64,000 bases of DNA, from sequence record NC_070873.1, one strand, 5' to 3'. The stretch comes from Escherichia phage St11Ph5. Shown here piece by piece: positions 59,136 through 64,000 of the stretch (position 1 is the stretch's first letter; each line of letters begins with the position of its first letter). The position numbers were made by a program, and so were the translations under genes. Under the pieces are notes generated by a model, which worked only from the letters and a program-made list of their open reading frames with translations, did not search any database and was not told the DNA's origin.

Positions 59136-60746
59136 TCACACAATGTATGAACGTAGTGGGTTAACACTATCTTCTTCTTCATCATCCCACATTGGGTCAC
59201 CCTTGTTATCCACCATAGTCATACCTGCTTGTGGTTTCCAAGGATTGAGATAACCCAGCATGGAGATAGTATCAATACAGTCATCCTTACCTTTGATTCC
59301 ATTAATGGTAGCTAGTTTAATCTGGCCCATGAACAGACCCATAATAGTTGAATCTCTCAACTCTTCCGGGAAATACATCTTACCAGCCTTGAACCAGGGA
59401 ACTACCAGGTTAAAACGTGACAGCTTAGAGGTTACAGGACGTATACCTGGCTTACCACCCTCAGAGGATGCAAAGTTAAAGAAGACATTACGGTTAATCA
59501 TTTCTTTCTGAAGGAGTGAAATGAAACCACCTTGTTGCCCTGTAATTTCGACCCCAACGTTTTGGGGTTGGTATTCTTGAACCAGACGGAATAAGTCATC
59601 AAAGTTTTTATCCATAAGCTGACGATTAGCCACACCATCAACCCAGAACCAATCTCCATTAGAACTATAAGCCCAAACTGATATGACACTGTAGTCACTG
59701 GTCTGTTTCTCCGAAGTAGCAAAGTCAGTTGTAATGTAATAGTTATAACAAGACTTCATCCTTAACAGTTGCTGTCTGCTATACCATCTAATTTCACTAT
59801 CCTGAACCAGTCTCTCATCTTCGGAGCTAATACGGAGCATAAGTTCCTGATAGAAGCCAGCCAACTTACCAGTTTTAACTGCCATGTCATATTGGGCTTT
59901 GATATAGTCGTAAGAGAAACGGTCATCCCATGCACCCTGAAATTCTTCCCTACTACAGGGGAACTTCTCACACACAGGCCATACGTTGACATCCCATGCA
60001 CCAGACTCTACTGCTTCAATGATAATGTCTTCCTTATTAAAAGGAGTACCGTTGAAGATTACTTTACGTCGAGTTGGATCAAGAGCATGGTTCACACCTT
60101 TATAGACGGTATCCTTAATAGCTTCCATGCTAGTCTTGGAGTTAGCATCACCATCACTAATCAAGTCATCCAGTACACATAGTGTTGGACGTTTACCATA
60201 TATCTTCGTACCACGAAGACCTGTCTTAGCACCAAACAGCTTAACACCAAGACGATGCCCTTCTACATTACGGAACTCCAGTAGGTTATCCGTAAAGGTA
60301 GCTTCAGGTATCCATTGCTGGAGGAACTCACTATTCTTGTAACGAAACTCAATGTTCTTACGTGCAGATTTAGCACCGTTATCCATTGAGTCAGATACGT
60401 AAATCATTCCTTCTACTTTACCCAGGCTTGGTAAGTGACCAAACACTGCCAGGAACAGAGTAAAGTATTCCATGAACACAGCAGTCTTACCTGCACCACG
60501 GAAGCATAGGTTAACTACATACTGGTTCGGACTAATCATCTTATCCAGCATCTTCAAGTGAACTGGAGGTGTTTTGTTGGATTCACCCTCTTTGCCATTA
60601 ACCAACTTAATAAAGTTGGCAAAGGTAAGAGCAAACTGACTAGGAACATAGTTAGATGAATTAAGGTGTGAGTAATCCACCTGGTCCAGCCATTCATCCA
60701 GTTCCTGCTTAATTAACTCAGACATCTGTAATGTCCTCATCTGCAC
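59136..60746 (-). CDS. terminase large subunit
   Basis: Walker A CFRGAGKT, Walker B LCVLDDLISD, C-terminal nuclease-like region; 536 aa. Confidence 0.8.
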   Translation of the reverse strand: MQMRTLQMSELIKQELDEWLDQVDYSHLNSSNYVPSQFALTFANFIKLVNGKEGESNKTPPVHLKMLDKMISPNQYVVNLCFRGAGKTAVFMEYFTLFLAVFGHLPSLGKVEGMIYVSDSMDNGAKSARKNIEFRYKNSEFLQQWIPEATFTDNLLEFRNVEGHRLGVKLFGAKTGLRGTKIYGKRPTLCVLDDLISDGDANSKTSMEAIKDTVYKGVNHALDPTRRKVIFNGTPFNKEDIIIEAVESGAWDVNVWPVCEKFPCSREEFQGAWDDRFSYDYIKAQYDMAVKTGKLAGFYQELMLRISSEDERLVQDSEIRWYSRQQLLRMKSCYNYYITTDFATSEKQTSDYSVISVWAYSSNGDWFWVDGVANRQLMDKNFDDLFRLVQEYQPQNVGVEITGQQGGFISLLQKEMINRNVFFNFASSEGGKPGIRPVTSKLSRFNLVVPWFKAGKMYFPEELRDSTIMGLFMGQIKLATINGIKGKDDCIDTISMLGYLNPWKPQAGMTMVDNKGDPMWDDEEEDSVNPLRSYIV

Positions 60747-61407
60747 GTACTAGTTTAGAACCAGCAACCTCTTTAGTAGGTACTCCACTATTGATTGCAT
60801 TAATTTGCTGTTCAGCTAATGCAGCAAGCGTTGCCTTGAGGTCAGTTAACCCAGAGTTCTCTCTCAAGTCCAGATTGATATTCGTTACCTGGTCTTTCGG
60901 TTTAGCTAAGTGGGTAAGGATAGAGTTAGCTGCATCACATCTTACCTTCTCACTTGCTGCTGTAGTCATCAGTTCAACCTGAACATTAATTGCCTTCTGA
61001 TAATTGTCCTGGTTTACAATCCACACTGGAACCAAACTTTGTTCCATGATGAGGTTAACTAGCTTACCTCTGTGATAAGCAGATACATAAGCACTAATAT
61101 CTTTCTCACTGGTTCCTCGTGCAACAAGTTCTGCTTGTCGGTTAGGGAATGTTTTGAAGTAGGCTTCCTTATTGGAGTAGCCCATGTGTTTATAAGTCAC
61201 ATACTGAACTGCATTCATGTAGTCCTGTGTCTTAAACTTACCCTCCTTCATTACACCAGAGTAGGAGATAAAGTTTTCACGGAAGGACTCAGCAACCAGT
61301 TGGTCTTGGGTAATGTTGTTAATTGTATCTACCAACTCCTGGGTCACACTGTTTTTGAAGTTAGCAGGTAAGGCATTAATAATCTGCTGCTTAGTTAGTT
61401 CACTCAT
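60718..61407 (-). CDS. putative terminase small subunit
   Basis: 229-aa ORF directly upstream of terminase large subunit, overlapping its start; by position only. Confidence 0.35.
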   Translation of the reverse strand: MSELTKQQIINALPANFKNSVTQELVDTINNITQDQLVAESFRENFISYSGVMKEGKFKTQDYMNAVQYVTYKHMGYSNKEAYFKTFPNRQAELVARGTSEKDISAYVSAYHRGKLVNLIMEQSLVPVWIVNQDNYQKAINVQVELMTTAASEKVRCDAANSILTHLAKPKDQVTNINLDLRENSGLTDLKATLAALAEQQINAINSGVPTKEVAGSKLVRADEDITDV

Positions 61408-61578
61408 ACTTATCTCGCTACAAAGTTATGTCTATTAAAGAAGATTCTTTTCTTGGGGTGAGTTACCCCTTGAAGAAACGATACCATACAGTTACACTTT
61501 AGTCATGATATAGAAAAAGTTCATGATACTAAATAGTATGTAATGTTCCGATGATCCTATTCCCAAAAGGAGTAACCT
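61408..61578. promoter_or_regulatory. divergent AT-rich intergenic region
   Basis: 170-bp AT-rich gap between divergent genes; repeated TCATGATA motifs; hairpin GGGGT-GAGTT-ACCCC. Confidence 0.3.
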
Positions 61579-61869
61579 TTGAGAATCTATATGAGAGTCC
61601 ACGACTCTAAAGATGAATACAAGGAGCTAGACCACACCAAAGCTGGTATTCTTTCAGATGACATTATCATCACACATGATGAAGACACTTACCATGAATT
61701 AGCTGGGATGATGCTTTTAGAGAATCGACCTGGCATTAAAATCTTAGAACCAAGAGAAACTTACTCTTTAGAAAAACGCCCATCAGCTCTTGTGTTCTTC
61801 ACAAAATTACCTCATAGTGTCTCCGTCAGGCGAAGCAAAGACAGTGTTCGGATGACGGTGACGATGTGA
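61579..61869 (+). CDS. small protein, paralog family member 1
   Basis: 96 aa; TTG start with AAGGAG RBS (alternative ATG 61591); shares D/E-x-H-E-hydrophobic-x-G core with four downstream ORFs. Confidence 0.4.
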   Translation: MRIYMRVHDSKDEYKELDHTKAGILSDDIIITHDEDTYHELAGMMLLENRPGIKILEPRETYSLEKRPSALVFFTKLPHSVSVRRSKDSVRMTVTM

Positions 61870-62069
61870 TTAGTCATGCCGCCTAGTAGACAGTGGCGGT
61901 ACTCGTAAAGAGTTAATAACTTCTACAGTCAGGGTTGCCCGGCTCCTTTCCTACCTAGTAGGCTAACGATACACATGTATCTAGGGTGATGAACTGACCC
62001 GTGATAGAAAACGGTAAGGGGTAGAGTCGAGAGGCTCTACCTCATTTCTTTTTCAGGAGGTATGCAAAT
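61870..62069 (+). promoter_or_regulatory. structured intergenic region with repeated CCTAGTAG and terminator-like hairpin
   Basis: CCTAGTAG at about 61882 and 61954; hairpins CCGCC...GGCGG and CCTAC-CTA-GTAGG; stem GGTAGAG/CTCTACC with T-tract just before RBS of next gene. Confidence 0.3.
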
Positions 62070-62468
62070 ATGAGCATCTACTGTTTTGATATTGATATTA
62101 CCGGAGTACTACTTATACAGGAACCTTATTACCTTGGGGAACCAGAAGTAGTAAGTAAGTTCATTACCCCGTGGCAAACAGTATTCTTACCTGACTGCGA
62201 AGAGTCCCATGAGGTTATTGGTTCTCTTTTCCTATCCAACCTGCAACTCAATACTAAGATACTTACTGAACCAAAGGTGTATGATCTTTCCTTTTATAGC
62301 GACTTTCAAATGCTCTTCCCTGGTGTACGTTTCTATAAGATAGATGGTTGGGAATTGATAGCTGACCATAATGTTTTTAATAAAACACTTTCCATTTACT
62401 TCAGACCTATTCCTAAAGGAAGGAAAATCAATCATGAAATTCATAATGACCATCCCCAGTTTTGCTGA
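62070..62468 (+). CDS. small protein, paralog family member 2
   Basis: 132 aa; AGGAGG RBS; motif VFLPDCEESHEVIGSLFL. Confidence 0.45.
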   Translation: MSIYCFDIDITGVLLIQEPYYLGEPEVVSKFITPWQTVFLPDCEESHEVIGSLFLSNLQLNTKILTEPKVYDLSFYSDFQMLFPGVRFYKIDGWELIADHNVFNKTLSIYFRPIPKGRKINHEIHNDHPQFC

Positions 62469-62748
62469 AAGGGAATCTATGTACACAACTGACTTCACTT
62501 TAGAAGAAGTCATGAACAGCAATCCTCAGCAAGTAATCCTGGTTCCTACCTTAGAAGATTATCATGAGGTAAGGGGTCAACTCTTCTTAGCAGGTAATGA
62601 CCGTAAGGTTGTATGTATTATTCCTCCTTCTGTCTATACCAACTATAACGCTAATGACCCTATCCCTTACATGATGGTATCTGATGACTATCAGTGGGAG
62701 AGTCGTTATGTGAAGGGTGAATACCGTTACTACTATACAAGGAAGTAA
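62434..62748 (+). CDS. small protein, paralog family member 3
   Basis: ORF 62371..62748; preferred ATG 62434 after AAGGAAGG; motif VILVPTLEDYHEVRGQLFL; overlaps member 2 by about 35 nt. Confidence 0.45.
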   Translation: MKFIMTIPSFAERESMYTTDFTLEEVMNSNPQQVILVPTLEDYHEVRGQLFLAGNDRKVVCIIPPSVYTNYNANDPIPYMMVSDDYQWESRYVKGEYRYYYTRK

Positions 62749-62751
62749 GTT

Positions 62752-63075
62752 ATGCGCTTCTACTCATTAGTTGCACTAAGTACAAGCTGCTATCTCAGTA
62801 CTGTAACTAAACAGGATTGTTTAAATGGTAAACTGGATGGAACTACTATCCTGTATGAACCAAATGAAGAAGCAGATGAGTTCATAGGTACATGCCTAAT
62901 GTTAGGTATACCCATCACTTTCATTAAGATAGATACATCAGTTGAGATATCTGAATTTGCAAGGGTGTACATCCTATCAACTGCTGAACCTATGGTAGTA
63001 ACTACCCTAACAGGTAGACTTATTACCCTCTACCCATCTACCTCATATTTATCTAGCGACGAGTGTGCCCTATGA
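62752..63075 (+). CDS. small protein, paralog family member 4
   Basis: 107 aa; motif TILYEPNEEADEFIGTCLML. Confidence 0.45.
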   Translation: MRFYSLVALSTSCYLSTVTKQDCLNGKLDGTTILYEPNEEADEFIGTCLMLGIPITFIKIDTSVEISEFARVYILSTAEPMVVTTLTGRLITLYPSTSYLSSDECAL

Positions 63076-63413
63076 ATAGAGTACTGTACCTTCATCAATA
63101 TACAGATGATGTCTCTGTTTACTCCGAGAATGTCAATAAAGCTATTGATTGGTTACTGCCACAAGACTGTCATATGCTTATGCTATCTGGCGAGTTAGCA
63201 GATAGTACCCGTGGTTCCATCCTTCTACTTAACAGTCTAGCTAAGTTAACCATCCTTAACCCAGGTGAATCCATAGAGATACCTGCAGGTGAATCTGCAT
63301 TTTTGTTCTTTGAACCAAGGATAGAAGAAGGGTTTGTTGGGCTTACTATAGATAGCAGACCTAATAAAGATTTTAAAAGAGTACGTATCATCACCCCAAG
63401 GGTATCTCTATGA
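63072..63413 (+). CDS. small protein, paralog family member 5
   Basis: ORF 63063..63413; ATG 63072 overlaps upstream stop (ATGA); motif MLMLSGELADSTRGSILL. Confidence 0.4.
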   Translation: MNRVLYLHQYTDDVSVYSENVNKAIDWLLPQDCHMLMLSGELADSTRGSILLLNSLAKLTILNPGESIEIPAGESAFLFFEPRIEEGFVGLTIDSRPNKDFKRVRIITPRVSL

Positions 63414-63739
63414 AACTAAACACATCCCCCTATCCAGTACAGCTAGAAGTAGTATTTGACCAGGATACCTTCATTAAAAAGTACAAGAAACTTAAAGGGT
63501 ATGAGCCAGACTTGGACGATTGTAAGGGGTATACTTCTTACTCTGGAAATCGAGTATTGATCGGTATCTTTAGGGAACCTTTACATACACTCATCCACGA
63601 ACTCAATCATTTCTGTTTATGGGTGTTTGACTACATAGGTATGCCTATAAACTCTGCCAATAGTGAAGCATATTGCTATTACTATGACCATATCTTCTCC
63701 CAGATTCCTTCCTCCTATTTAACTGCTTATAAGGGCTAA
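63410..63739 (+). CDS. small HExxH-motif protein (possible minimal zinc metallopeptidase-like)
   Basis: 109 aa; LIHELNHF motif; ATGA overlap with upstream gene. Confidence 0.4.
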   Translation: MKLNTSPYPVQLEVVFDQDTFIKKYKKLKGYEPDLDDCKGYTSYSGNRVLIGIFREPLHTLIHELNHFCLWVFDYIGMPINSANSEAYCYYYDHIFSQIPSSYLTAYKG

Positions 63740-63740
63740 C

Positions 63741-63875
63741 ATGTGGTATGTAACAGTCAAGGGCTTACCTGAACCAGTAATAGTACACAGCCTAGCTTTC
63801 GTAGAAGTTGGTGGACCATTGCTTGTAAACGGTAAGCTGTATGAGGTTTTAGGTATTAAACGCTATGACGAATAA
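63741..63875 (+). CDS. hypothetical small protein
   Basis: 44-aa ORF starting 2 nt after upstream stop; followed by hairpin GGGGTA...TACCCC. Confidence 0.25.
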   Translation: MWYVTVKGLPEPVIVHSLAFVEVGGPLLVNGKLYEVLGIKRYDE

Positions 63876-64000
63876 GGGGTAGATAGCTACCCCAACCATC
63901 TTTCATATTAATACCTCAAAGCTATCTGCTTATAGAGATAGTGCCTATAATATTTTTGCATGTCAAAATTGTGATAGCTATGTACAGCCATAGTGGTGTG

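Follow-up and report, generated by a model that had tools for sequence, protein, structure and literature searches.

The right end of the genome of Escherichia phage St11Ph5 (NC_070873.1), a G7C-like member of the Schitoviridae, carries a run of small rightward genes (St11Ph5_00084 to 00090) whose annotation is "hypothetical" in every source. Our window, the whole 64,000-nt stretch of this record that was analysed, contains there five consecutive open reading frames (ORFs), m1 to m5, followed by two further ORFs, n6 and n7. An earlier note had picked out m1 to m5 as tandem, rapidly diverging paralogs. Our analysis indicates that they form one family, that m1 and m2 are the orthologues of gp70 and gp71 of phage N4, and that between gp71 and gp72 the array has been expanded. 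The array region is 93% identical to that of Escherichia phage vB_EcoP_ShWW44 and 85-91% identical to those of G7C, IME11, pSb-1, Bp4 and about 50 other Gamaleyavirus genomes. The genes are the following:

61579-61869, plus strand: m1, 96 amino acids (aa), TTG start; phrog_7213
62070-62468, plus strand: m2, 132 aa; phrog_9160
62434-62748, plus strand: m3, 104 aa from an ATG with a ribosome-binding site; phrog_11661
62752-63075, plus strand: m4, 107 aa; phrog_12099
63072-63413, plus strand: m5, 113 aa from an ATG, or with a GTG start at 63063; phrog_12606
63410-63739, plus strand: n6, 109 aa; phrog_1365; contains HExxH and lies outside the array family
63741-63875, plus strand: n7, 44 aa; distal boundary of the expansion zone

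The five ORFs are all present, tightly packed and with coupled starts, as had been noted, and the m2/m3 overlap, put earlier at about 35 nt, measures exactly 35 nt. ATGA overlaps join m4 to m5 and m5 to n6, m3 and m4 are spaced by 3 nt, and good ribosome-binding sites precede m2 and m3. The longest ORF alternative for m3 begins at 62371 and has 125 aa. The TTG start of m1 falls at the alignment position of the ATG in N4 gp70 and in KP8_1 of Klebsiella phage KP8.

A loose pattern for the core matched exactly five of the 350 window ORFs of at least 40 aa, and these were m1 to m5. The core peptides quoted in the earlier note are correct; the D/E-x-H-E-hydrophobic-x-G motif that it ascribed to all five, however, holds in its strict form in m1 to m3 only, m4 having ADEF and m5 ADST. 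The m4 orthologue of Shigella phage Moo19, gp5, keeps the histidine (EEAHEFIG), and just one glycine is near-invariant across all paralogues. Smith-Waterman comparison against shuffled sequences gave z-scores of 9.4 for m2-m3, 4.4 for m1-m5, 3.4 for m1-m3 and 3.2 for m1-m2, with only about 2 for m4; as single sequences, m4 and either m1 or m3 were no more similar than shuffles. PHROGs places m1 to m5 in five separate families, with weak cross-hits among m1, m2 and m3, and a single superfamily is stated in no source that we found.

For profile comparisons, the ORF set of relatives was drawn from 17 related loci, and orthologues of other genera were added in a second pass. Starting from m1, jackhmmer recruited m3 and m2 together with two paralogue types absent from the window, which we named pA and pB; in these the motif is clearer still (ILVPDEQxLHE[LV]xGL...LxEPG). 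With the enriched profiles, hhalign linked pA to pB at 99.6%, m3 to pA at 97%, m1 to pA at 90%, m2 to m3 at 82% and m3 to m1 at up to 76%. It also linked m5 to m1 at 78.6% (E = 1.7e-5) and m5 to m4 at 78-91.5%, the best E-value of the latter, again with enriched profiles, being 8.5e-7 over 66 columns. As control families, n6, n7 and the N4-gp1 homologues stayed at or below 1.2% and were never linked, n6 reaching at most 0.5% with any array family; n6 and n7 were therefore rejected as additional members. In a leave-one-family-out test with hidden Markov models (HMMs), in which the left-out member was ranked against the 345 other window ORFs, each one took the place directly below the four members kept in the model and ahead of all the others, with E-values of 5.7e-7 (m1), 1.1e-5 (m2), 2.8e-7 (m3), 3.5e-2 (m4) and 5.9e-3 (m5). 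From these comparisons, m1, m2 and m3 appear firmly linked, m5 joins them through m1, and m4 joins only through m5. We are confident that all five are homologous, m4 being the least secure, and the tandem paralogy proposed earlier is borne out by the shuffles, the profile network and the leave-one-out HMMs, all with clean controls.

The rightward ORFs that follow gp69 in N4 are gp70, a 210-nt gap, gp71 and gp72. m1 is the orthologue of gp70 (HMM E = 1.2e-24; hhalign 99.6%), m2 that of gp71 (hhalign 91.6% over 108 columns; HMM E = 3e-7) and n7 that of gp72 (HMM E = 3.2e-25), which places the extra genes of the G7C-like array, as an inserted expansion, between gp71 and gp72. The earlier note had overlooked that m1 and m2 are conserved N4 genes, and also the structured non-coding element and terminator that follow m1. 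Orthologues of m1 occur in KP8, Moo19 and JWAlpha as well. KP8 has a gp70-type gene, a 257-nt gap and a gp71-type gene, then further members, including an m5-type gene, and an n6 orthologue. Moo19 has m1, the gap, m2, m3, two divergent copies, an m4-type and a pA/pB-type gene. Achromobacter phage JWAlpha, of a different subfamily, has gp87 (gp70-type), a gap with an annotated terminator and then four ORFs that include gp90 (gp71-type). Family members are encoded rightward, in the stretch bounded by the gp69-like gene on one side and the right terminal repeat on the other. An HMM search of 1.84 billion representative proteins returned 17 matches, all of the N4-like right-end kind, and with so few matches the family appears confined to this phage group. 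There are 117 database clusters for m3 and hundreds for the members together; in a homologue search with alignment, the best 120 of 639 matches were all of m1 or m2 type. The KP8 genes were described as "ten hypothetical ORFs at the 3' end", and the literature treats such genes only as short ORFs without known function that form a variable group (PMC6950046); our literature search on N4 gp70/gp71 function and on Schitoviridae anti-defence genes found nothing relevant.

Three observations on these relatives may be added. The right-end array of KP8 (our locus L021, 5476-6355) also holds three tiny ORFs of 68, 64 and 56 aa, by eye a second paralogous set, with the eye-aligned pattern GNVY...V..V......INIR.......LIG..Y. 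The GenBank record of Moo19 begins inside the gp70-gp71 gap (L019/L022), and its numbering splits the array, gp86 being m1 and gp1 being m2. One m1 homologue (P0270, 86% identical) is labelled 'Enterococcus faecium' and sits on a 2.76-Mb contig, a labelling that most likely reflects coliphage contamination or mis-assembly.

The content of the array ranges from one to eight members and varies between near-identical phages, whose terminase genes are 97-98% identical. The architectures recorded were:

N4: m1-m2-n7
St11Ph5: m1-m2-m3-m4-m5-n6-n7
pSb-1: ...m5-pB-n7
IME11: ...m5-n6-m5b
PhAPEC5: ...m4-pA-n6-m5b
G7C: m1 to m4 only
One metagenomic genome: m1-n6 only

The terminal gene, next to n7/gp72 or closing the array, nearly always has ...SYLTAYK as its C-terminus, whatever its type (n6, pB, m4 or m5b). 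N4 gp71 ends in ...IPAYK, and internal copies of the same types have different ends. The dependence of the tail on position points to a fixed 3' junction derived from gp71, with cassettes being inserted or deleted on its upstream side. n6, for which KP8 has an orthologue, carries the SYLTAYK tail when it is terminal. In other G7C-like phages its slot is occupied alternately by the paralogue pB; both proteins start with MKL and end with SYLTAYK, which suggests in-frame cassette replacement.

Substitution rates agree with the description of the array as rapidly diverging only in a relative sense. Array proteins are 56-80% identical between phages, against 97-98% for their neighbours, and the median ratio of nonsynonymous to synonymous substitution rates (dN/dS) is 0.15-0.27 in array genes (0.22 for m1 and 0.21 for m2), against 0.023 for the large terminase gene (TerL) and 0.028 for the gp69-like gene. 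None of the pairs compared gave a dN/dS above 1. The array is thus constrained, with an approximately 10-fold relaxation, and reflects relaxed purifying selection and recombination rather than demonstrable positive selection. Its dS is also higher (0.5-0.8, against 0.3 for the comparison genes), consistent with exchange with more distant donors.

Around m1, the following features were found:

59136-60746, minus strand: TerL, upstream of the array
60718-61407, minus strand: gp69-like gene, a small-terminase candidate, upstream of the array
61470-61498, plus strand: candidate sigma-70-like promoter of m1, with -35 TTGAAG (61470-61475), a 17-nt spacer and -10 TACACT (61493-61498)
61870-62069, plus strand: non-coding gap between m1 and m2, about 200 nt, with a GC stem-loop, a motif, several helices and a terminator
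61878-61900, plus strand: GC stem-loop after the m1 stop, in the gap
61914-61932, plus strand: motif TAATAAC-TT-CTACAGTCA, in the gap
62018-62053, plus strand: strong intrinsic terminator, just before the m2 ribosome-binding site

The hexamers and spacing of the promoter candidate are kept in four genera, represented by G7C-like phages, Moo19, N4 (TTGCAG-17-TAGACT) and KP8 (TTGAAG-17-TAGACT), and the spacer sequence varies. The candidate scores 8/12, under the threshold of the promoter scan; from its hexamers we infer that it is probably a promoter for the host polymerase. A conserved hairpin, GGGGTGAGTTACCCC (61455-61469), lies between the gp69-like gene and m1 and abuts the promoter hexamers, and the m1 leader contains the direct repeat TCATGATA twice, at about 61505-61532. 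A GGGGT...ACCCC hairpin upstream of m1 and the TAATAAC...CAGTCA motif were each considered as members of a repeated promoter family and rejected, both being essentially unique in the window.

Conservation of the gap separating m1 from m2 extends across subfamilies of the Schitoviridae, reaching from phages of E. coli to those of Achromobacter, and the motif TAATAAC-N2-3-CTACAGTCA occurs once per genome, only in this gap between gp70 and gp71. RNAalifold predicted 51 pairs in it, 21 of them with compensatory changes, and z-scores of its minimum free energy were -2.7 to -4.0. In Moo19 the GC stem-loop of the gap is duplicated. Neither the Rfam nor the tRNA scan of the array region, gap included, gave a match. 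The gap may act as a switch for read-through into the array, or may be a structured 3' untranslated region or a small RNA. With a terminator standing before m2, transcription of the genes m2 to n7 would require read-through or long transcripts running rightward.

The earlier note had placed the array at a genome end, and this is indeed the physical right end. The ends of the St11Ph5 record were placed at the experimentally confirmed left end of G7C (PMC5764931). In IME11, termini from read pile-ups give a 401-bp direct terminal repeat at 62722-63123 (PMC3896407). When our locus L004 was mapped on the IME11 record, the last array ORF lay about 90 nt from this repeat, and the N4-gp1 homologue started within it; in metagenomic assemblies extending across the repeat, the array is followed by gp1 and gp2. 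The array thus stands at the right end pointing outward, and the terminus separates it from the early genes gp1 and gp2. It is the left genome end that enters the cell first in the N4 paradigm. Since the array is at the right end and would enter last, an immediate-early role in host takeover is unlikely. In LUZ7, an N4-like Pseudomonas phage, middle-stage transcripts of the Watson strand span the genome in full, and with it the cluster of 29 small ORFans (gp87-gp115) at the far right (PMC9163698). By analogy, middle-phase expression would be expected of the St11Ph5 array. No N4-type hairpin promoter with a 3-nt loop was seen upstream of the array.

From the sequences, m1 to m5 are predicted to be soluble, lacking transmembrane segments, with isoelectric points of 4.3-6.5 and net charges of -1 to -7. 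The AlphaFold2 model of m3, built on a 101-sequence superfamily alignment, has a mean predicted local distance difference test score (pLDDT) of 87.9 and a predicted template modeling score of 0.80. It predicts two N-terminal strands, a short helix, a strand-helix-strand core that bears the motif and a five-strand meander. The model had no match among the solved structures of the PDB, so that the predicted fold of m3 is unlike any of them. When Foldseek was run against the predicted viral structures of BFVD, the significant matches were all uncharacterised proteins of N4-like phages, among them the m3 orthologue of EC1-UPM, an 89-aa protein of PhAPEC5 (pA), a 108-aa protein of PhAPEC7, a 121-aa protein of OLB145 (gp71-type), four KP8 proteins whose lengths fit KP8_2, KP8_3, KP8_4 and KP8_10, and several Achromobacter phage proteins. 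Weaker matches came from Pseudomonas phage Zuri (template modeling score about 0.46). The neighbours of 108 aa in KP8 and 113 aa in IME11 are probably m5-type, judged by length alone. No family in Pfam, NCBIfam or PADLOC matched any of m1 to m5, and these databases, PHROGs and PDB yielded no characterised inhibitor or other known family for them. RcsD_ABL of Pfam (E = 0.19) and other single weak matches were rejected as inconsistent across members. Acidic DNA mimics of the Ocr/ArdA type, for which an elongated, strongly acidic surface and, at this size, a net charge far below -10 would be expected, were also considered and rejected; the net charges are only -1 to -7 and the m3 model is compact alpha/beta. 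A zincin-type metallopeptidase was set aside as well, as the x-H-E-hydrophobic-x-G core lacks a second histidine and m4 and m5 lack the first. An HExxH does occur in the neighbouring non-member n6 (HELNH, within LIHELNHF). The profile and structure searches of known families having given no characterised match, we agree with the earlier note that no function can be assigned.

Based on these findings, we lean towards a reading in which the array is one family, undergoes cassette turnover at the right end and supplies non-enzymatic, host-specific accessory binding modules after the early phase. N4 gp70 (m1) and gp71 (m2) would be the founders of a Schitoviridae-specific superfamily of soluble alpha/beta proteins of 90-135 aa, and in G7C-like phages duplication would have enlarged the family between gp71 and gp72. 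Continual recombination would move whole cassettes in and out upstream of the fixed 3' junction, so that the last gene inherits the SYLTAYK tail of gp71. In the proposed expression scheme, m1 would be its own unit, composed of the conserved sigma-70-like promoter, m1, a structured RNA of about 190 nt and the terminator. m2 to n7 would form a translationally coupled operon reached via terminator read-through or rightward middle-phase transcription, which would run toward the terminus with the array adjoining the right terminal repeat. The proteins may be dispensable host-specific accessory factors that modulate host or phage proteins after the early phase, possibly in counter-defence. A non-enzymatic, accessory binding role is suggested by the conservation of a single glycine across paralogues and by the variation in copy content among 98%-identical phages. 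We hold the structural and evolutionary part of this reading with high confidence; the functional part, binding modules acting as accessory factors and possibly in counter-defence, is only tentative.

Several points weigh against this reading. Binding is a role that we infer, not a result, and the timing is extrapolated from LUZ7, a distant Pseudomonas phage with ORFans comparable in position. Within m1, m2 and m3 the H-E pair hardly varies, and in this subset it could have a function in metal binding or catalysis. The conservation of gp70 and gp71 across subfamilies suggests a core rather than a purely accessory role for both. The membership of m4 depends on profile links, its AlphaFold2 model, made from a shallow alignment, being unusable (pLDDT 42.7). 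The m5-type label of BFVD matches is based on protein length and not on sequence.

Among the alternatives, we consider it unlikely, but worth keeping in mind, that the proteins are accessory factors of replication, recombination or DNA ends, acting in end protection, concatemer processing or replication initiation; such a role would fit the location beside the terminal repeat and the terminase genes and an expression together with the middle (replication) genes. The earlier note had seen in such arrays a typical feature of host-takeover or anti-defence families. Immediate-early host takeover, in which the products are made at the start of infection to shut down host functions, would have parallels in other small, fast-evolving, terminal gene arrays (the terminal-redundancy module of SPO1 and the pre-early region of T5), and on assembled circular maps the array is directly upstream of gp1 and gp2. 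However, the physical terminus parts it from that early region, the N4 left end enters first, the N4-type hairpin promoter was not seen, the rightmost cluster of LUZ7 is middle-stage and no dN/dS exceeds 1; we therefore regard takeover as improbable.

A similarly poor prospect, in our judgement, is that the proteins are small metal-dependent enzymes, in which the acidic-x-x-H-E helix start would bind a metal and a hydrolase or transferase would act on a host molecule. In the m1/m2/m3 alignment, conservation of H44 and E45 is 90% or higher, with an acidic residue preceding them, and the Moo19 m4-type protein keeps the histidine; but this residue is replaced by aspartate in m4 and m5 and the glutamate by serine in m5, m1 to m5 have no HExxH or other catalytic signature, and no enzyme family or fold matched. 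It is least credible that the array represents chance resemblance or non-genes. The failure of m4 to rise above shuffles against m1 or m3 and of its structure model would fit this idea, yet all members link while the controls never do, selection is purifying, the database clusters number in the hundreds and other genera have orthologues, and for m1, m2, m3 and m5 it is effectively refuted. We also rate as unlikely a more far-reaching form of the favoured reading, in which the gp70/gp71 superfamily would be an unrecognised, Schitoviridae-wide set of diversifying inhibitors with a novel fold (counter-defence proteins or host-factor binders) and the gp70-gp71 RNA and terminator a riboregulatory read-through switch.

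Compared with known systems, the array is an uncharacterised case within the known fast-evolving accessory gene arrays of phages. The gp70/gp71/gp72 region of N4 resembles it in its slot after the gp69/gp68 terminase genes, in the structured gap of about 200 nt with a terminator and in the core beta-alpha-beta motif, but has two family members instead of five; relatives have up to eight, including pA, pB and m5b. The right-end clusters of small ORFs in KP8 and LUZ7 are like the array in slot, orientation, variable number and lack of known function (PMC6950046, PMC9163698). The KP8 members are sequence homologues of the array and likely structural homologues; the LUZ7 cluster is likened to it by position and orientation.

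Hyperplastic regions of virulent phages include those of T4-type phages, shuffled by promoter-early stem-loops, the host-takeover module of SPO1 and the pre-early region of T5. They recall the array, by analogy only, in their tandem small genes, rapid turnover between relatives, dispensable-looking content and location near genome ends. The array differs from them in that most of its cassettes are paralogues with a probably shared fold, and not ORFans without relationship to one another, that it is at the last-entering and not the first-entering end, and that exchange takes place at a coding 3' junction. T4-type promoter-early stem-loop cassettes were rejected as a model, since the genes overlap or abut (ATGA overlaps, 3-nt gap) and there is no repeated intergenic promoter or stem-loop.

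The N4-like phages are a large, therapeutically used family, and for 15 years the only annotation given to the small ORFs at their right end has been 'hypothetical, variable in number'. What is new here is the unification with N4 gp70/gp71, the exchange of cassettes at a junction and the conserved RNA-like element next to the array. A list of ORFans thereby becomes a set of testable hypotheses, most right-end ORFs here being one paralogous family descended from gp70/gp71. Because the array differs between 98%-identical phages from different pathogenic E. coli, it is a prime candidate for host-strain-specific determinants of infection other than tailspikes, and such determinants are relevant to predicting and engineering phage host range.

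Two minor features of the window remain to be mentioned. A perfect 7-bp GC-rich hairpin, GGGGTAGATAGCTACCCC, lies at 63876-63893, directly 3' of the n7 stop and some 100 nt before the record ends; it lacks a T-run on the plus strand, and the terminator scan rates it only as a weak terminator-like site on the minus strand. A tRNA-Ala gene (anticodon CGC) was found in the middle-gene region at 25908-25979 on the plus strand.

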